From a virus (taxonomy: Duplodnaviria > Heunggongvirae > Uroviricota > Caudoviricetes), in IMG/VR virus record IMGVR_UViG_2541047728_000008: a stretch of 6,007 nt of DNA, one strand, 5' to 3'. Both the position numbers and the translations under genes were made by a program. A model generated the notes under the pieces. That model worked only from the letters and a program-made list of their open reading frames with translations, was not told the DNA's origin and did not search any database. Of the stretch, positions 1 through 6,007 are shown in pieces (within the stretch, counting starts at the first letter, position 1; each line of letters starts with the position of its first letter).

Positions 1-1239
1 ATGAGCAGGGCAATTCATAGACTTAGCGACACTCTTTTACGAAAATTAAGCGGATCACCAACCACAAAAAACACCTTTTTTAATGATGGTGGCAACCTTA
101 GCGTAAGGCATTCAACCAATGGCCTGTTAACCTGGTATTTCACTTACAGGGCCGGAACAGGCAGGAAGGTAGCCCCTGAACGTCTGAGGCTGGGAAATTA
201 TCCAGATTTGAGCCTGAAAGCAGCCAGGGAAAAAGCGTCGCAGTGTCGCGCCTGGCTTGCTGAGGGTAAAAATCCACGCCATGAGCTTAATCACACCGTA
301 CAGGAAGCGTTATCACCTGTTACGGTTAAGGAAGCGCTCACTTACTGGCTTGAATCGTACGCGAAGGAAAAGCGCACAGATTACGAATCTCTGAAAAGCC
401 GGATCAATACACACATAATCAGCCATATTGGTGCTATGCCGCTGGAAAAATGCGAGCTACGCCACTGGCTGACCTGTTTTGATCAGCTTGCTATGCGTAA
501 TCCGGTATCAGCAGGATTTTTGTTACAGGTATGCAAGCAGGCGCTTAAGTACTGCCGCAAACGACGCTACGCAATTACCAACGTTCTAGATGATATGGTT
601 GTAGGTGATGTTGGGAAAAAAGCAGAAATAAGCGAGCGCGTACTAACAAACAAGGAGCTTGGGGAATTACTACGCGCCCTGGATGAAAAAATTTACACAC
701 CGTACTACAGCGCCCTGATTCGCCTCCTGATTATCTTCGGATGCCGTACCACTGAGCTAAGACGCTCTGAGGTCCAGGAATGGGATTTTAAAGAAATGCT
801 CTGGACTGTGCCGAAAGAACACAGCAAAACGAAGGTAGCAATATTCAGGCCAATACCGGAAGCGATCTTGCCGTTCGTAACGAAGCTGGTGGAGCAGAAC
901 CGACACACGGGCTTATTACTCGGAGAACTGAAAGGGCAATCATCTGTATCAGAGTACGGAAGAACGGCACACAGACGCATTAATCAAGCCCCCTGGACGT
1001 TGCACGACATCCGGCACACGTTTACAACGATGCTGAACGATTTAGGCGTGGATCCTCATGTAGTGGAGCAGCTAACCGCGCACCAGTTGCCAGGAATGCA
1101 ACGAGTCTATAATCACTCCCGTTATCTCGATGCAAAACGTGACGCTCTTAATCTATGGGTTGAGCGTCTCGAGCTTCTCCAGAACAATGATGAAAAAATC
1201 GTTGTTATGACCCCGCGAATTTACTCCCAAAATTCTTGA
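1..1239 (+). CDS. int: Tyrosine site-specific integrase, P4-like family
   Basis: 412-aa ORF starting at window position 1 (ATG), stop TGA at 1237-1239. C-terminal catalytic signature of tyrosine recombinases: Arg in FGCRTTELRR, H-x-x-R in LHDIRHTF, candidate nucleophile Tyr in RVYNHSRY. N-terminal region resembles the arm-binding domain of P4-type integrases. The true start could lie upstream of the window. Confidence 0.9.
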   Translation: MSRAIHRLSDTLLRKLSGSPTTKNTFFNDGGNLSVRHSTNGLLTWYFTYRAGTGRKVAPERLRLGNYPDLSLKAAREKASQCRAWLAEGKNPRHELNHTVQEALSPVTVKEALTYWLESYAKEKRTDYESLKSRINTHIISHIGAMPLEKCELRHWLTCFDQLAMRNPVSAGFLLQVCKQALKYCRKRRYAITNVLDDMVVGDVGKKAEISERVLTNKELGELLRALDEKIYTPYYSALIRLLIIFGCRTTELRRSEVQEWDFKEMLWTVPKEHSKTKVAIFRPIPEAILPFVTKLVEQNRHTGLLLGELKGQSSVSEYGRTAHRRINQAPWTLHDIRHTFTTMLNDLGVDPHVVEQLTAHQLPGMQRVYNHSRYLDAKRDALNLWVERLELLQNNDEKIVVMTPRIYSQNS

Positions 1240-1280
1240 CAAATTACGGCTGTTTTTCTTGCGAAAAATGGCCCTCTAAA

Positions 1281-1316
1281 ATAAATCGTCGAATATCGGC
1301 AAATATCGACGATTTA
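1281..1316. repeat. Imperfect palindrome ATAAATCGTCG(n14)CGACGATTTAT about 42 bp downstream of int stop
   Basis: 11-bp arms at 1281-1291 and 1306-1316 are exact reverse complements; the 14-nt spacer contains internal ATAT/ATAT symmetry. AT-rich and not followed by a clean U-tract, so more likely a protein-binding site than an intrinsic terminator. Confidence 0.35.
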
Positions 1317-1388
1317 TATGTGTCAAGTATTGAAAAAATTTGAAATGTCTTCTTCTTAGTTCTTATTCTCTGTTTCTTGATTGTTCCA

Positions 1389-1435
1389 ACACCTGATGGT
1401 TTATCTATTTGTTTTTAATAAGGTAATTCAGGTGT
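1389..1435. repeat. Inverted repeat pair ACACCTGA ... TCAGGTGT in the int-alpA intergenic region
   Basis: 8-bp exact reverse-complement arms at 1389-1396 and 1428-1435, 31 bp apart, in AT-rich DNA upstream of alpA. A related GTGACAC lies at 1479-1485. Possible regulator-binding site; function not inferable. Confidence 0.25.
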
Positions 1436-1648
1436 CATGCCAAATAACGACATTTTTTGTTGCGTCGCTTAAAAACTCGTGACACGATTTTAAACACTAA
1501 CGAGCTTCTACGAACCTTAGCGAACAAAGCCTTTAGCATGGTTGTGTTTTTAATTTAAGAGGTGAAAAAGAATCTAAGTAATATCCGATCTCATATATCT
1601 ACAGCTAAGAGAAAAGTTTATATACGTAATTTTTATGTAGGTTTTTGT

Positions 1649-1858
1649 ATGCGTGAAATAAATGAAGATCGCGTAATCCGTGAGGATGAATGTCGTAAGT
1701 TAACTGGAGTGTGCCGCACTACACGTTACGAACTGGAGAAAAAAGGGCGCTTTCCGTCACGTCTTAATCTGGGCGGTCGTTCTGTAGGGTGGCTGCTGTC
1801 CGAGGTTATGGAATGGGTTAAAAGCCGGGATCGCATTAATTCAGGTAAGGCAGTGTAA
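1649..1858 (+). CDS. alpA: AlpA-family phage transcriptional regulator (excisionase-like HTH)
   Basis: 69-aa product MREINEDRVIREDECRKLTGVCRTTRYELEKKGRFPSRLNLGGRSVGWLLSEVMEWVKSRDRINSGKAV has the size and hallmarks of AlpA/Xis-type regulators (HTH followed by SVGW...E..EW). ATG at 1649 preferred over the track's GTG at 1562, whose 29-aa extension is AT-rich and non-protein-like. Weak SD (AGG, spacing about 7). Confidence 0.8.
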   Translation: MREINEDRVIREDECRKLTGVCRTTRYELEKKGRFPSRLNLGGRSVGWLLSEVMEWVKSRDRINSGKAV

Positions 1859-1874
1859 AGGGGAGCATATGACA

Positions 1875-1905
1875 CATAAAACAAAGGCGACCTGGGGCGG
1901 TCGCC
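1875..1905 (-). terminator. Rho-independent terminator for leftward transcription (possibly bidirectional)
   Basis: GC-rich 7-bp stem GGCGACC (1886-1892) / GGTCGCC (1899-1905) with 6-nt loop. On the minus strand the stem is followed by TTTGTTTTAT (plus 1875-1885). On the plus strand it follows the alpA stop but has only a weak AGTTTGG tail. Confidence 0.6.
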
Positions 1906-1969
1906 AGTTTGGAAACACTAAACATAAGCATGGCAATGATAGCCTCTATCAGGCTGGTGGGCAATGCTA

Positions 1970-2146
1970 TCAGTCTGTTTCAGTGCGTTGCCATAACTGC
2001 GAAGCTCTCTCCTTTGATGAGTATTCTTTAAGGTACTTCTCAAGGGCAAAAGAACACGGCGCGAATCGTTCTGATTCATGCTCTTTCTTTCTGCGTCGTC
2101 TTTTTCGTGCAGGTGATGTTTTTTCGGTTGATTCTTCGTTGGTCAT
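1970..2146 (-). CDS. Candidate small basic protein (58 aa), in frame with and downstream of the RHH gene
   Basis: Minus-strand ATG at 2146 to TGA at 1970-1972 encodes MTNEESTEKTSPARKRRRRKKEHESERFAPCSFALEKYLKEYSSKERASQLWQRTETD. Weak SD (AGG about 8 nt upstream). Same reading frame as the upstream RHH ORF, separated by a single TAA and 57 nt. Absent from the ORF track (below its length cutoff). Could be a real second cistron, a remnant of a longer ancestral gene, or non-coding. Confidence 0.3.
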   Translation of the reverse strand: MTNEESTEKTSPARKRRRRKKEHESERFAPCSFALEKYLKEYSSKERASQLWQRTETD

Positions 2147-2203
2147 TGTGTGCGCCTGTAAAGCAATGCGCCGGAGTTCCTCACACCACGGCGCTGATAG
2201 TGA

Positions 2204-2383
2204 TTATTCTGATTCTTTGGCCTTGCGACGCTGGCGGCGTTTGATCTCGCCTCGCATGGCTGTAACGATAAATTGCGCAGTGCTCTCGCCTGTTTCTTTT
2301 ACTTGCTCCATAGCCTCAACAACTTCATGCGGGGCGCGAGCCTGTAATTTCTGTGATTTGTTATTGATATGGTCTCTTTCCAT
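2204..2383 (-). CDS. Arc/Mnt-like ribbon-helix-helix (RHH) DNA-binding protein, putative repressor
   Basis: Minus-strand ORF, ATG at 2383 to TAA at 2204-2206, 59 aa: MERDHINNKSQKLQARAPHEVVEAMEQVKETGESTAQFIVTAMRGEIKRRQRRKAKESE. Good SD (AAGGGA, 7-nt spacing). The segment KLQARAPHEVVEAM-EQVKETGESTAQFIVTAMRGEI aligns by eye with the P22 Arc pattern (FNLRWPREVLDLV-RKVAEENGRSVNSEIYQRVMESF): beta-strand with R-x-P, helix A, Gly turn, S/T N-cap, helix B. Divergent from the downstream operon and adjacent to palindromic operators. Not in the ORF track. Confidence 0.65.
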   Translation of the reverse strand: MERDHINNKSQKLQARAPHEVVEAMEQVKETGESTAQFIVTAMRGEIKRRQRRKAKESE

Positions 2384-2403
2384 TTCTGGTTCCCTTTGTG
2401 ATT

Positions 2404-2416
2404 ACTGGAATCCAGT
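2404..2416. promoter_or_regulatory. Operator O1: 13-bp palindrome ACTGGAATCCAGT
   Basis: Perfect 6+1+6 inverted repeat (ACTGGA-A-TCCAGT). Overlaps the candidate -10 (TATACT on minus strand, plus 2414-2419) of the leftward promoter for the RHH gene. Confidence 0.55.
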
Positions 2417-2444
2417 ATACACGAAAAAGACCAAAACAAAACGC

Positions 2445-2474
2445 TTGAAGTGGATTCCACTTAGTGATTATACT
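2445..2474 (+). promoter_or_regulatory. Sigma70-type promoter for the rightward replication operon
   Basis: -35 TTGAAG (2445-2450), 18-bp spacer, -10 TATACT (2469-2474); predicted start near 2481. O2 and O3 overlap both hexamers. Confidence 0.5.
2449..2461. promoter_or_regulatory. Operator O2: 13-bp palindrome AGTGGATTCCACT
   Basis: Same core as O1/O3 (TGGA-W-TCCA) in opposite orientation, with flanking C/G swapped. Overlaps the -35 (TTGAAG, 2445-2450) of the rightward promoter and lies in its spacer. Confidence 0.5.
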
Positions 2475-2484
2475 GGAATCCAGT
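2472..2484. promoter_or_regulatory. Operator O3: 13-bp palindrome ACTGGAATCCAGT (identical to O1)
   Basis: Exact second copy of the O1 13-mer, 68 bp from O1. Overlaps the -10 (TATACT, 2469-2474) and predicted start site of the rightward promoter. Confidence 0.55.
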
Positions 2485-2502
2485 TGAGTGTTTATCACTC
2501 AA
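2484..2502 (+). other. 5'-leader hairpin / palindrome TTGAGTG-TTTAT-CACTCAA
   Basis: 7-bp perfect stem with 5-nt loop immediately downstream of the predicted start site; no U-tract follows, so not a terminator. The 3' arm ends at an in-frame ATG (2502), which it would sequester. Confidence 0.4.
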
Positions 2503-2579
2503 TGCAAACGAGGCTGAAAAGGATTGCCGTCCTTTCGCAGCCTCTGACCACCAACGATAGCGAAAGTATCGAGGTAGCT

Positions 2580-2783
2580 ATGAGAAATCATACCATACAC
2601 CCGCAAGGGCGGGACTCGCACAACCTGAATAAATACATCTGGCGTTTTATCGCCCTGAGCACGGCACAACCGCGCGTGATTACCATCGAGGCCACCAGCG
2701 AACAGGAAGCGCGTCAGCAATCTCCTGATGGCTGCGTGATGGTATTCGCCGCCCGTATTCGTCAGGGGGTGAGTCATGCATAA
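2580..2783 (+). CDS. Small protein (67 aa), first gene of rightward operon; function unknown
   Basis: ATG at 2580 preceded by GAGG (2571-2574) at 5-nt spacing; stop TAA 2781-2783. Product MRNHTIHPQGRDSHNLNKYIWRFIALSTAQPRVITIEATSEQEARQQSPDGCVMVFAARIRQGVSHA. This is the only protein-like part of the track's 304-aa ORF (1869..2783). From memory only, it may resemble small Icd-like proteins of P4-type islands; unverified. Alternative start ATG 2502 (93 aa) lacks an SD. Confidence 0.6.
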   Translation: MRNHTIHPQGRDSHNLNKYIWRFIALSTAQPRVITIEATSEQEARQQSPDGCVMVFAARIRQGVSHA

Positions 2784-3003
2784 AATACCCTTTGATGTTC
2801 TTGTTCATTCTGAAAACGCATTAATCCGCGCAAAGGAAATGGACGCATTACTACTTAAGTTAATTGATGTGCCGGAAAGTGGCGATGAATCTGATTCAAT
2901 GATGTTTTCTGCCGTGCGTACGCTATTAACGCCTGTTATTAATGAATTAAATACAGTGATGGCAATTCACGAGAATAATAAAGCGCAGCACACCGGAGAA
3001 TAA
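2776..3003 (+). CDS. Small acidic protein (75 aa), function unknown
   Basis: ATG 2776 overlaps the upstream stop (2781-2783) by 8 nt, indicating translational coupling; SD AGGGGGTGA upstream. Product is acidic (about 12 D/E versus 6 K/R) and probably helical. Confidence 0.6.
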   Translation: MHKIPFDVLVHSENALIRAKEMDALLLKLIDVPESGDESDSMMFSAVRTLLTPVINELNTVMAIHENNKAQHTGE

Positions 3004-3008
3004 AAAAC

Positions 3009-3308
3009 ATGAAAAATAAAAATTCTGGCGTTACTGCCAGCGGCCCCGCTCGTCCTGAATTTATGAACGGCGATATTTACCGCGATAAATATGGCGGCAT
3101 GGTAACGATTAAAGGCGTGGCAGAACGGCGCATCACCTACCGTCGTGAAGGCTACGAATATGATTGCGTGATGCCTGTTTATCAGTTCGATCGTGATTTT
3201 TCTCTGGTGCAGGCAGTACCGCGTAGCGTGCCCACCAGCAGGGAGAAAGCACGCGCCAATATTCAGGAAATAAAAAAGATGCTTAACGTATTCAGGGGTA
3301 AAAAATGA
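3009..3308 (+). CDS. Small protein (99 aa), function unknown
   Basis: ATG 3009 lies 5 nt after the upstream stop, with GGAGAA SD at 8-nt spacing; stop TGA 3306-3308 overlaps the next start (ATGA). No recognisable motif. Confidence 0.55.
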   Translation: MKNKNSGVTASGPARPEFMNGDIYRDKYGGMVTIKGVAERRITYRREGYEYDCVMPVYQFDRDFSLVQAVPRSVPTSREKARANIQEIKKMLNVFRGKK

Positions 3309-5053
3309 AACTGGCACCGAACGTAAAAAAACAGCCACGCGGAATAAAACACAAAGACACAGAGGTAATTATTTTCGCGGGTAGTGATGCCTGGTCGCAC
3401 GCGAAACAATGGCAGGAGCAGGATGGCCCCGCATCCGGCGATAATGTGCCGCCTGTGTGGCTTGGGCCAAATCAGCTTGCCGAACTTGATGCACTGAAAA
3501 TTGTTCCGGATGGAAAAAAACGCGTAAGGCTGTACCAGGCCGGAGAACTGGATTTGGTGGAGACCAAAAAGATTGGTCAGAAGCTGGCGGCGGCAGATAT
3601 TCAGGACGCAAATTTTTACCCCGAAGGAATGCACGTCCAGAAGTGTGAAAACTGGCGGCGCTATCTGAATGCTGAGCGTGAAAATATTGCCGCAGGGCTT
3701 ACCATGCCGGAGCAGAAAAATACGCAACTGGCACAAATGGCAGACAGTGAGCGCGCACAGATGCTTGCTGGTCGATTTGATGGCGTTTGTGTGCATCCGG
3801 AAAGTGAAATCGTTCACGTATGGCGCGGCGGGGTATGGTGTCCGGTCAGCACAATGGAACTTAGCCGCGAAATGGTGGCGATCTATTCAGAGCACAGGGC
3901 CACTTTCAGCAAGCGCGTAATCAATAACGCCGTGGAAGCGTTAAAAGTTATTGCCGAACCAATGGGCGAGCCGTCCGGCGATTTGCTGCCGTTCGCCAAT
4001 GGTGCGCTTGACCTGAAAACGGGGGAATTTTCCCCGCACACGCCGGAGAACTGGATCACCACGAACAACGGCATTGAGTACACGCCACCAGCACCAGGGG
4101 AGAACATCCGCGATAACGCGCCAAACTTTCATAAATGGCTTGAGCACGCAGCCGGAAAAGACTCGCGCAAGATGATGCGTATATGTGCCGCGCTGTACAT
4201 GATTATGGCGAACCGGTACGACTGGCAGATGTTTATTGAGGCCACCGGAGACGGCGGGAGCGGTAAAAGTACATTCACACACATCGCCAGCCTTCTGGCA
4301 GGGAAACAGAACACGGTGAGCGCGGAGATGACATCGCTTGATGATGCTGGTGGGCGTGCGCAGGTTGTCGGGAGTCGTCTTATCGTCCTGGCAGACCAGC
4401 CGAAATATACAGGCGAAGGCACGGGCATCAAGAAAATCACGGGCGGCGACCCCGTGGAAATCAACCCGAAATATGAAAAGCGTTTCACTACGGTAATCAG
4501 GGCGGTGGTGCTGGCGACCAATAACAACCCGATGATATTCACCGAACGGGCCGGAGGCGTGTCACGTCGTCGGGTTATTTTCCGCTTCGACAATATCGTA
4601 AGCGAGGCAGAAAAAGACAGGGAGCTACCGGAAAAGATTGCGGCTGAAATCCCTGTCATTATCCGCCGCTTGCTGGCGAACTTTGCCGACCCTGAAAAGG
4701 CACGGGCTTTACTCATTGAACAGCGAGACGGTGATGAAGCACTGGCGATAAAGCAGCAGACGGATCCGGTTATTGAGTTTTGCCAGTTCCTGAATTTTCT
4801 GGAGGAAGCGCGCGGCCTGATGATGGGCGGCGGCGGTGACTCTGTCAGGTACACGACCAGAAACAGCCTTTACCGCGTCTATCTGGCGTTTATGGCGTAT
4901 GCAGGCAGGAGCAAACCGCTAAACGTAAATGACTTTGGCAAGGCTATGAAGCCAGCCGCGAAAGTTTACGGACATGAATATATTACGCGGAAAGTTAAGG
5001 GAGTAACGCAGACTAACGCAATAACAACAGACGATTGCGACGCGTTTTTATAA
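3305..5053 (+). CDS. Replication protein: SF3 (D5/P4-alpha C-terminal type) helicase-NTPase, putative primase-helicase
   Basis: 582-aa ORF with SD AGGGGT and ATGA overlap with the upstream gene. Walker A GDGGSGKST (aa 315-323, nt 4247-4273), Walker B-like RLIVLADQ (aa 358-365), SF3 motif C VVLATNNNP (aa 401-409). Upstream conserved block LPFANGALDLKTGEFSPHTPENWITTNNGIEYTP is typical of the D5_N / P4-family primase C-terminal region. Shorter than P4 alpha (about 777 aa), so a full primase domain is not demonstrated. Confidence 0.85.
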   Translation: MKLAPNVKKQPRGIKHKDTEVIIFAGSDAWSHAKQWQEQDGPASGDNVPPVWLGPNQLAELDALKIVPDGKKRVRLYQAGELDLVETKKIGQKLAAADIQDANFYPEGMHVQKCENWRRYLNAERENIAAGLTMPEQKNTQLAQMADSERAQMLAGRFDGVCVHPESEIVHVWRGGVWCPVSTMELSREMVAIYSEHRATFSKRVINNAVEALKVIAEPMGEPSGDLLPFANGALDLKTGEFSPHTPENWITTNNGIEYTPPAPGENIRDNAPNFHKWLEHAAGKDSRKMMRICAALYMIMANRYDWQMFIEATGDGGSGKSTFTHIASLLAGKQNTVSAEMTSLDDAGGRAQVVGSRLIVLADQPKYTGEGTGIKKITGGDPVEINPKYEKRFTTVIRAVVLATNNNPMIFTERAGGVSRRRVIFRFDNIVSEAEKDRELPEKIAAEIPVIIRRLLANFADPEKARALLIEQRDGDEALAIKQQTDPVIEFCQFLNFLEEARGLMMGGGGDSVRYTTRNSLYRVYLAFMAYAGRSKPLNVNDFGKAMKPAAKVYGHEYITRKVKGVTQTNAITTDDCDAFL

Positions 5054-5065
5054 TTTTTGGCAATT

Positions 5066-5298
5066 GCTGTCTACCTTGTCTACCTGATTACATAAAAGTT
5101 GTTTTAATTCAGTGTATTAATTTAGGTAGACAGCTTTTTTTTACTGTCTACAAGCTGTCTACCTTGTCTACCTGTTTTTGTAGCCAGCCGGAGGGATGAG
5201 TAGACATCAGGTAGATAGCGATTTTTTACTGTCTACTTCCATTAAACCCGCGTCATTACTGGCCTGAGCATCTATCAGGTAGACAGAGTAGACAAGGT
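5066..5298. repeat. Iteron array (core TGTCTACC), putative replication origin / helicase-binding region
   Basis: Exact 21-bp direct repeat GCTGTCTACCTTGTCTACCTG at 5066-5086 and 5154-5174, each a tandem dimer of TGTCTACCT. Inverted dimer copy at 5277-5297 (AGGTAGACAGAGTAGACAAGG). Exact 15-bp direct repeat TTTTTTACTGTCTAC at 5137-5151 and 5222-5236. Hexamer GTCTAC at 5069, 5078, 5146, 5157, 5166, 5231 and GTAGAC at 5126, 5200, 5279, 5288 (10 exact copies; about 0.1 expected by chance), plus degenerate copies. AT-rich tract 5087-5123 is a candidate unwinding element. Lies immediately downstream of the helicase gene. Confidence 0.65.
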
Positions 5299-5342
5299 GG
5301 GGGTAGGTCCAAAACTTTTTAAACGAGGGGGTAAAAATAAAA

Positions 5343-5600
5343 ATGCACACATCAGGAAAATTTAACAATCAGAAGAAATCACATAACCGCGCCATTGACC
5401 TTACAGAGCACTGGCTGAGGGTGGCGATAAAAATCATCGACCGCAACACGGGGGAAGGATATGCGAAAGCACATCCTGAACTAATAAGCGCATTCATGAC
5501 CACAGCGGCGGCAAACTTTGCCACGCTGACAGAACGGGAGATTGCCGAAGCGGAACAGGTAACAACCATCAACGTTAAAACCGGAGAGGTGGAATCATGA
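5343..5600 (+). CDS. Hypothetical protein (85 aa), translationally coupled to ssb
   Basis: ATG 5343 preceded by GAGGGGG; stop TGA 5598-5600 overlaps the ssb start (ATGA). Product MHTSGKFNNQKKSHNRAIDLTEHWLRVAIKIIDRNTGEGYAKAHPELISAFMTTAAANFATLTEREIAEAEQVTTINVKTGEVES has no motif I recognise. Confidence 0.55.
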   Translation: MHTSGKFNNQKKSHNRAIDLTEHWLRVAIKIIDRNTGEGYAKAHPELISAFMTTAAANFATLTEREIAEAEQVTTINVKTGEVES

Positions 5601-6007
5601 CAGCACAGATAGCCGCTTACGGGCGGCTGGTGGCTGACCCGCAGTTAAAGACCACCAGCAAGGGCACACAAATGGCTATGGCAAGCATGGCGGTCCCCCT
5701 GCCGTGCAATCAGGCAGATGACGGACAGGCGACGATGTGGTTATCCGTCCTGGCGTTTGGCAGACAGGCCGACGCACTGGCAAAACACCACAAAGGCGAG
5801 CTGGTGAGCGTGGCGGGTAACATGCAGGTAAGCCAGTGGACAGGCCAGAACGGCGAAACGCGGCAGGGCTGGCAGGTTATTGCAGACAGCGTAATCAGTG
5901 CCAGAACGGCGCGACCTGGTGGGAGCCGACGCAAGACCACAGGCACACAGGGTAATCAGCCACCAGCGGGAGGCGATGACCCTTACGGTGATGATATTCC
6001 GTTCTGA
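5597..6007 (+). CDS. ssb: Single-stranded DNA-binding protein (compact SSB, 136 aa)
   Basis: OB-fold SSB signature: YGRLVADPQLKTTSKGTQMAMASMAV ... MWLSVLAFGRQADALAKHHKGELVSVAGNMQVSQWTGQNGETRQGWQVIADSV parallels E. coli SSB ([28 protein letters not shown] ... [50 protein letters not shown]). Short Gly/Pro-rich linker and C-terminal acidic tip DDPYGDDIPF match the canonical DDDIPF tail. Stop TGA is the last codon of the window. Confidence 0.85.
   Translation: MTAQIAAYGRLVADPQLKTTSKGTQMAMASMAVPLPCNQADDGQATMWLSVLAFGRQADALAKHHKGELVSVAGNMQVSQWTGQNGETRQGWQVIADSVISARTARPGGSRRKTTGTQGNQPPAGGDDPYGDDIPF

Follow-up and report, generated by a model that had tools for sequence, protein, structure and literature searches.

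The window analysed here (the whole stretch of 6,007 nt from IMG/VR record IMGVR_UViG_2541047728_000008) is, with a probability that we place at about 0.92, the left, early half (~6 kb) of a phage-inducible chromosomal island (PICI) in Escherichia coli, of the EcCICFT073/EcCIIHE3034 type, inserted between cspD and clpS at the 3' end of yljB. This element type is already catalogued at the exact attachment (att) site, and the window is a new mosaic example of a well-described family. What appears to be new is a small, overlooked, repressor-like gene of the YlcI/YnfO family, whose putative operators change along with the protein across relatives. We tentatively propose, at somewhat less than even odds, that this ribbon-helix-helix (RHH) gene and three allele-specific operators are the missing master repressor of Gram-negative PICIs (GN-PICIs) and of capsid-forming PICIs (cf-PICIs). 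The repressor-operator pair would be a testable answer to an open PICI question, namely what silences the island before a helper phage turns on alpA.

The window corresponds to positions 6697-12703 of a locus, designated L003 in our comparison set, on contig KE699419.1 of E. coli assembly GCA_000457005.1, which is the single contig in which its Pri-Rep protein is on record. The first base of the window is that of the int ATG, as the initial annotation of this DNA had stated, and the contig stops one base past the ssb stop codon. To the 5' side of int, L003 carries macA, macB, cspD and the 24-codon yljB, a flank that shows 98.2% identity with E. coli K-12. An island that begins with the genes of the window lies between yljB and clpS in strains SY033 (L001) and IHE3034 (L002). 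The latter island is EcCIIHE3034 of Table S1 in Fillol-Salom et al. (2018, ISME J, PMC6092414), where it is given as NC_017628.1 920272-930825, 10.5 kb, att ATGATAGTTAT, cspD-clpS. We observed 92% DNA identity between the window and EcCIIHE3034 across 93% of the window length. Also, L003 has the attL core ATGATAGTTAT at yljB, between cspD and int and 184 bp upstream of the window, and this core matches exactly the att reported for EcCIIHE3034 and EcCI18098; a specific chromosomal att site, of a kind that PICIs would use and prophages would not, is a mark of Gram-negative PICIs. Alignment of the source attL, the L001 attR and the empty K-12 site placed the crossover in ATGATAGTTAT[C/T]TATCA at the yljB 3' end. 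The integration target is the 3' end of this small gene in the cspD-clpS spacer. An attachment site just upstream of int had been expected from the initial annotation and is where it was predicted to be; the tRNA gene expected as its target is not, since the core is the end of yljB and ARAGORN detected no tRNA or tmRNA in the 6.7 kb upstream of int. The sole nearby tRNA gene in a relative (tRNA-Ser) is 3 kb past the right end, beyond clpA. Another candidate for the att core was AATGGTGTAGTTAATTT, which is the longest direct repeat that the two ends share; we rejected it because alignment with the empty K-12 site gave ATGATAGTTAT; AATGGTGTAGTTAATTT is an internal arm-type motif.

Islands at the cspD-clpS site in five relatives are 10.5, 11.1, 14.6, 14.8 and 15.1 kb in size, with direct repeats at both ends, and capsid and packaging genes were seen downstream in every relative examined, as had been predicted. 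These observations bear on the possibility that the window belongs to a prophage, ordinary or decaying, or to an integrative conjugative or mobilisable element, as its module for replication and immunity. Such a reading could draw on the fact that an integrase, small DNA-binding regulators, a primase-helicase and an SSB are generic parts of mobile elements. Yet no tail, lysis, relaxase or type IV secretion system genes are called or annotated in the islands of relatives, so that the reading as a satellite came through the test that the initial annotation had itself set for it. Also, the window shares DNA with none of 50,697 phage records (megablast), and it carries alpA, a published signature that separates satellites from prophages (PMC10111431). 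We regard the prophage or conjugative reading as very improbable. Together with the EcCIIHE3034 identity, the shared att core and the gene order of EcCICFT073, the island content of the relatives upholds the assignment to the int-alpA-rep type of Gram-negative PICI, and the parts on which that assignment had been based (int, alpA, a divergent repressor-like gene with palindromes, a replication operon, iterons and ssb) are all present at sensible coordinates. Partial matches to the window were found in 1919 of 5426 complete E. coli genomes, with at least 80% of the window covered in 107; PICIs of this type occur in about one-third of complete E. coli genomes.

The candidate repressor gene and the sites associated with it are located between alpA and the replication operon, as follows.

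2383 to 2204, minus strand: gene for a YlcI/YnfO-family protein of 59 amino acids (aa), candidate RHH repressor (NCBIfam YlcI_YnfO_N, NF041551, E=2.4e-20).
2403-2417: palindrome O1, TACTGGAATCCAGTA, in the leader of the RHH gene, at -32 from its ATG.
2448-2462: palindrome O2, AAGTGGATTCCACTT, over the -35 element and spacer of the rightward promoter-like site.
2472-2484 (2471-2484 with a leading T): palindrome O3, ACTGGAATCCAGT, over the -10 element and start of the rightward promoter-like site and in the spacer of the leftward one.
2445-2474, plus strand: rightward promoter-like site from a consensus scan, TTGAAG (2445-2450), 18 nt, TATACT (2469-2474).
2494-2467, minus strand: leftward promoter-like site from the same scan, TAAACA (2494-2489), 16 nt, TATAAT (2472-2467).
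2146 to 1970 (1970-2146), minus strand: orf58, a very basic protein of 58 aa (phrog_21027, E=3e-12).
1886-1905, minus strand: terminator-like hairpin (7-bp stem, 6 G-C pairs, T-rich tail) where the leftward operon ends, convergent with alpA.

The three palindromes are built on TGGAATCCA and are located in the divergent spacer, 2384-2579; there are no others in the window, and only 1 of 200 shuffles reached this count. The -10 hexamers of the back-to-back promoter-like sites share four bases (2467-2472 and 2469-2474), such that RNA polymerase could occupy one promoter at a time, and this arrangement is kept in the 25-locus scaffold described below.

The 59-aa protein is predicted to have an extended N-terminus followed by two helices, in an RHH-like fold, and its best structural matches are the RHH antitoxins ParD2, TacA2, MazE4, Rv0298 and VapB12. 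Searches of PDB sequences with the protein, either as a single sequence or as a 32-sequence profile, returned only chance matches, to LptE and ribosomal S20. The gene shows an excess of substitutions at third codon positions, and homologues of the protein number 108 in Enterobacterales. A 304-aa open reading frame (ORF) on the plus strand, 1869-2783, is antisense to the two leftward genes and the operators and has no family match in 1869-2201; we consider it spurious. The same 1869-2201 segment, considered as a possible Bro-N remnant on the plus strand, gave no Pfam match. A gene caller could choose this antisense ORF and mask the small repressor gene, and a 353-aa ORF is called there in loci L019 and L024. 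The YlcI/YnfO gene of EcCICFT073 bears a RefSeq tag, C_RS30120, of a later-added series and is absent from the original CFT073 annotation; it was therefore probably not on the gene map used in the 2018 PICI study.

We aligned the 115 nt upstream of the YlcI/YnfO gene from 25 loci in eight genera, and observed a conserved scaffold of the form TCAA-[O3]-TATAAT-...-[O2]-TTCAAG-...T-rich...-GTATA-[O1]-RBS-ATG (RBS, ribosome-binding site), the elements of which include GTATAC. The promoter scaffold is constant among the 25 loci, whereas the 11-mer centres of the operators differ by RHH allele group. The operator CTGGATTCCAG is shared by the window, Serratia and X. mauleonii; CTGGCACCCAG occurs in two Xenorhabdus loci and in Proteus, all of which carry KSQKMSARVP; GTGTTGAACAC occurs in IHE3034 and five cf-PICI loci; and GTGTGGCCCAC occurs in CFT073. 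Further operators, in other allele groups, are GTGGACTCCAC, GTGAATCGCAC, GTGTGCTCCAC, GTGACTCCCAC and GTGAATACCAT; about 10 specificity groups were seen among the loci compared. With 15 representative alleles, the locus's own 11-mer was present in 2-3 copies (mean 2.8), for which -100, -77 and -32 from the ATG were the commonest positions, as against an average of 0.5 matches per locus for the operators of other loci, mostly from the same group.

Operator sequences vary in step with the residues in the N-terminal segment of the RHH protein. In two pairs of loci (L008/L009 and L014/L022), residues 9-18 are identical within the pair, yet both the operators and residues 1-8 are different; the N-terminal arm of the protein therefore probably contributes to operator specificity. 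The position of the gene is also maintained beyond Escherichia. We examined 12 loci from Serratia, Tenebrionibacter, Xenorhabdus, Enterobacter, Proteus, Citrobacter, Pectobacterium, Cedecea and Morganella, and observed that int and alpA adjoin the leftward ylcI gene in 9 of the 12, with icd, DUF4222 or pri on its other side in 7 of those 9. From these comparisons we infer that the YlcI/YnfO protein would be an autoregulated repressor of the replication operon; operators that are fixed in position over promoters, and that covary with the RHH allele, point to a repressor that is absent from the published PICI model.

The leftward pair formed by the RHH gene and orf58 might instead be a small toxin-antitoxin or addiction module, with palindromes that serve autoregulation only. 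The structural best matches to RHH antitoxins, and the placement of the RHH gene first and the small ORF second, which is the usual antitoxin-toxin order, are what one would expect of such a module. However, orf58 has no match to a known toxin family. Its coding status is moderately supported only, with substitutions that show no clear codon-position bias (13/8/13), and it contains the run RKRRRRKK. It has a 57-aa homologue in EcCICFT073, is replaced by an unrelated 69-aa ORF in L018, and has no annotated counterpart in IHE3034. Furthermore, O2 and O3 cover the rightward promoter-like site of the replication operon and not just the promoter of the RHH gene, and the position of the RHH gene beside icd or pri is constant across genera while its downstream neighbour varies. 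On this balance we consider an addiction module unlikely, and favor a repressor of the replication operon.

If the proposal of a master repressor is correct, the RHH protein would be an immunity or specificity determinant that splits these satellites into about 10 or more groups, and AlpA, once induced by a helper, would need to overcome it, possibly by means of convergent alpA transcription into the repressor operon. The published picture of unidirectional transcription, with AlpA as sole regulator and no repressor, would then need revision. Several points weigh against our interpretation. The 2018 model has GN-PICIs transcribed rightward only, with AlpA as activator and a global repressor unclear (PMC6092414). 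The promoters that we describe are consensus matches only, 5 of which were found in a scan where 3.0 were expected. In the literature searched, from which subscription journals were mostly absent, we found no functional study of the YlcI/YnfO protein (as DUF3950, as an RHH protein or as a PICI repressor) and, with few subscription-journal papers covered, no experiment on the element of the window. With regard to the island as a whole, the source contig ends at ssb, such that the island could be truncated or defective, and transfer of EcCIIHE3034 in a published test ranged from below 1 to 40 transductants (PMC6092414).

The left end of the window, which precedes the leftward gene pair, contains the following features.

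1-1239, plus strand: int, P4-type tyrosine integrase of 412 aa (Pfam Arm-DNA-bind_3, E=9e-17, and Phage_integrase, E=8e-19; phrog_1 integrase).
1240-1648, plus strand: int-alpA spacer, A+T-rich (~35% G+C), identified by composition, an inverted repeat and a promoter scan.
1340-1369: promoter-like site in this spacer, from the promoter scan.
1649-1858, plus strand: alpA, 69-aa helix-turn-helix activator of the AlpA/Vis family, excisionase-related (Pfam Phage_AlpA, E=1.7e-16).

The int gene is 99.8% identical in DNA sequence to that of the SY033 island. Gram-negative PICIs characteristically begin, at the left, with int and continue with alpA in the same orientation; in the window both genes are on the plus strand. 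In EcCICFT073, AlpA is an autoactivating activator that is essential for induction, and its expression depends on helper phage (PMC6092414). By analogy with those experiments, the int-alpA spacer of the window is presumed to be a helper-responsive, AlpA-autoactivated alpA promoter region. The spacer contains a perfect 12-bp inverted repeat, ATAAATCGTCGA / TCGACGATTTAT (1281-1292 / 1306-1317, with a 13-nt loop), 42 bp past the int stop codon; its A+T content is too high for it to be a typical terminator, and it could be bound by a protein. Outside the window, we observed a doubled 12-mer, GGTGTAGT(C/T)AAT GGTGTAGTTAAT, i.e. GGTGTAGT(C/T)AATGGTGTAGTTAAT, at L003 6650-6673, which is 24-47 bp upstream of window base 1 and 137 bp from the attL core; it recurs ~95 bp inside attR (L001 26868-26891), and TTGTTCG repeats accompany it in both att arms. 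The doubled 12-mer and the TTGTTCG repeats are probably arm-type integrase sites. Their layout is like that of a doubled motif reported for helper-embedded PICIs (PMC10111431).

The rightward operon and the predicted origin occupy the remainder of the window.

2580-2783, plus strand: Icd-like protein, 67 aa, first gene of the rightward operon (NCBIfam phage_ICD_like, E=9e-20; phrog_6196).
2776-3003, plus strand: orf75 (phrog_2196, E=4e-10).
3009-3308, plus strand: DUF4222 protein, 99 aa, its stop codon overlapping the pri start (Pfam DUF4222, E=4e-24).
3305-5053, plus strand: Pri-Rep, 582 aa, predicted replication initiator and superfamily 3 (SF3) helicase (D5_N, DUF5906, Pox_D5; TIGR01613 110.9 bits, cut-off 108.7).
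5060-5300: predicted origin (ori), with ten TGTCTAC iterons in both orientations and an A+T stretch.
Iteron positions: plus strand 5068, 5077, 5145, 5156, 5165 and 5230; minus strand 5126, 5200, 5279 and 5288.
5343-5600, plus strand: orf85, its stop codon overlapping the ssb start (phrog_1231, E=2e-48).
5597-6007, plus strand: ssb, 136 aa, C-terminus ...GDDIPF (Pfam SSB, E=1.3e-16; TIGR00621 60.1 bits, cut-off 53.95).

ORFs of 75 aa are present at the orf75 position in IHE3034 and cf-PICIs, and the orf85 position is taken, in those PICIs and cf-PICIs that were examined as relatives, by an ORF of 85 aa (83 aa in SY033). Pri-Rep shares 90.6% identity with its EcCICFT073 counterpart and 98.8% with that of EcCIIHE3034. 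As judged by sequence comparison, the protein would consist of D5_N and P-loop domains and, at the C-terminus, a domain for origin binding that resembles the one in P4 alpha: its residues 141-571 are 41% identical to P4 alpha, and its residues 486-574 match PDB 1ka8 (E=1e-6), a 100-residue chain deposited as a 'putative P4-specific DNA primase', which we take to be the P4 alpha origin-binding domain. The first 140 residues (window 3305-3724) matched only phrog_2850, with no primase domain, and are the portion most divergent from EcCICFT073 (60-82% identity, versus 96-100% elsewhere). A Pfam search at E<=5 with Pri residues 1-145, Icd-like, orf75 and orf85 returned nothing meaningful. With no recognisable primase domain in the first 140 residues, the 'primase' label rests on the helicase half of the protein. 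A full-length homologue of Pri-Rep (41% identity, 100% coverage) occurs in LR881103.1, a 16.5-kb 'induced prophage' record named 'Escherichia phage vB_KppS-Ant'; to judge by its size, the record may be of a satellite, for example a cf-PICI, that was entered as a phage.

The heptamer TGTCTAC is present in 10 copies in 5068-5294, against 0.47 expected, and none of 200 shuffles reached ten. The iterons surround a 79% A+T stretch (5084-5125) and a T8 run in non-coding 5054-5342, and the region is collinear with the ori region of EcCICFT073, from which a pri-ori segment drives replication (PMC6092414). Thus, the window has a pri gene with an adjacent ori (Pri-Rep at 3305-5053 and ten iterons), as is characteristic of Gram-negative PICIs. 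The ssb product has both the OB-fold SSB domain and the acidic/hydrophobic C-terminal tip of its family. The SSB and RHH genes had at first been viewed as unusual additions to a satellite, a view that does not hold: both are carried by the prototype EcCICFT073 and by all of the E. coli relatives examined, PICIs and cf-PICIs alike, and are therefore standard parts of the family. The EcCICFT073 gene c1497 is listed as 'ssb', 136 aa, in the table of PMC6092414, and GN-PICIs have been divided into four zones, for integration (int, alpA), Bro, replication (Primase, SSB, DUF5906, ori) and late functions (PMC10111431).

The similarities of Pri-Rep and its iterons to P4 raise the alternative of a P4-family satellite, with a P2-type helper, RNA immunity and capsid control by Sid, Psu and Delta. 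The window and P4 share an integrase type and fold, related AlpA/Vis proteins (43% identity to P4 Vis, ORF88), an initiator-helicase of which the C-terminal region is included in the similarity to alpha, and short iterons beside the initiator gene, which in the window lie 3' of it, as does P4 crr, and have like octamers (TGTCTACC in the window and TGTTCACC among the annotated type-1 iterons of P4). However, the matches to P4 are confined to 3 of 10 window proteins, namely Int (23% identity), AlpA and Pri 141-571. The RHH, Icd-like, DUF4222, orf85 and SSB genes are lacking in P4. Conversely, the portion of alpha that is N-terminal to the aligned region, with its primase domain, has no counterpart in the window's Pri, and the att site of the window is not a tRNA gene, as that of P4 is. 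No Rfam family matched any part of the window at E<=1, which leaves it without a C4/isrK RNA such as that of the P4 CI immunity system. Among relatives, sid, psu, delta and eps are not named in the annotated L001, L002 and L005 (the Pfam-only calls of L018-L025 were not searched specifically), and the late genes are of the lambdoid/HK97 type, for capsid and terminase. The P4 resemblance drawn in the initial annotation is thus a distant one: the element is similar to P4 in outline and is not a member of the P4 family. Membership in that family is already contradicted by these observations, and we assign it only a very slight chance.

Among PICIs of the EcCICFT073/EcCIIHE3034 type, the window is a mosaic. 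By segment-wise BLAST, positions 1-2779 are 99.8% identical to L001, a classical island of 11.1 kb whose late genes are capsid-like, decoration and TerS-annotated, and positions 2742-6007 are 99.1% identical to L020, L021 and L025, which are cf-PICIs at the same cspD-clpS site. The junction is at ~2720-2780, in the 3' end of the Icd-like gene; in cf-PICIs the Icd-like N-terminus continues into a 204-aa Ash-family protein, as compared with the 67-aa ORF of the window. The window is therefore a clean case of module exchange, in which the integration and switch half is that of a classical PICI and the replication half is that of a cf-PICI.

The late region is absent from the source contig, and the chances are about even that the source island is itself a cf-PICI of the EcCIEDL933 type (~14.6-15.1 kb), a sub-type of the PICI assignment that would form its own capsids and take only tails from the helper. 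The identity of the right half to three cf-PICIs at this site is consistent with such an island. Also, an identical SSB is encoded in at least eight places, and the eight examined are all cf-PICIs, at two att sites; each has genes for capsid, S78 protease, portal, connectors and terminase small subunit, and 7 of the 8 have HNH and TerL. In addition, the contig break directly after ssb fits a repeat in common with a second island. The E. coli genome OZ040488.1 has two such cf-PICIs, L019 at roxA-phoQ and L020 at cspD-clpS, whose SSB proteins are identical and whose RHH alleles fall into one group; duplicate islands of this kind would explain the break at the ssb stop codon. (L019 is interrupted by an IS21-family element, with IstB and transposase genes, between its protease and portal genes.) On the other side, int, alpA and the switch are those of the classical L001, and modules clearly recombine, such that the late module cannot be predicted from the right half. 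Since the integration/switch and replication halves are exchanged between PICI types, the early region is no predictor of capsid strategy.

These observations can be combined into a possible sequence of events for a PICI of this kind. In quiescence, dimers of the 59-aa RHH protein would occupy the three operators over the back-to-back promoters, which would keep the rightward Icd-like/DUF4222/Pri-Rep/SSB operon off and autoregulate the repressor, as the comparisons among relatives suggest. A lambdoid helper phage would turn on alpA, as was shown for EcCICFT073 and not for the window's element, and Int, possibly aided by AlpA, would excise the island at ATGATAGTTAT. As transcription of alpA converges on the repressor operon, it may lower the repressor or read through into the replication operon, which is speculation on our part. 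By homology, Pri-Rep would bind the TGTCTAC iterons just 3' of its own gene through the P4-alpha-like C-terminal domain, open the A+T-rich spacer and act as an SF3 helicase. The island SSB would coat single strands, and its DDIPF tip presumably recruits host replisome proteins. Late genes past the window would then package concatemers, with either a capsid-like/decoration/TerS-like set or a complete capsid-forming module.

Comparison with known systems places the window closest to EcCIIHE3034, with which (as with EcCI18098) it shares the att core and chromosomal site, and with which it also shares the gene order from int to ssb. EcCIIHE3034 differs from the window in its RHH allele, with operators GTGTTGAACAC as against the window's CTGGATTCCAG; in an annotated Bro-N pseudogene that lies, at the position of the window's orf58, between alpA and its RHH gene; and in an ssb gene of 423 nt, as against 411 nt. 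The prototype EcCICFT073, for which int-att function was shown experimentally (PMC6092414), is located at roxA/ycfD-phoQ and has the same order of int, alpA, orf(-), YlcI/YnfO(-), Icd-like, small ORFs, DUF4222, Pri-Rep, ori, orf85 and SSB. It differs in its integrase and att site (int, 79% DNA identity; core GGACATATTT), in an AlpA allele of 62 aa, in an RHH allele with GTGTGGCCCAC operators, and in three additional small ORFs upstream of DUF4222. As Alqurainy et al. (bioRxiv 2022.09.08.507074) note, the cf-PICIs of the EcCIEDL933 type have int, alpA and rep in common with classical PICIs; the replication module of those at cspD-clpS, and the SSB of eight loci, match those of the window, the left 2.8 kb of which is closest to a classical PICI. 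Finally, the YlcI/YnfO protein is, like the RHH repressors Arc and Mnt of P22, CopG, omega and the ParD-type antitoxins, small, with an extended N-terminus and two helices predicted, and the putative operators of the window resemble theirs in being palindromes of ~11-15 bp that are present in several copies over promoters.

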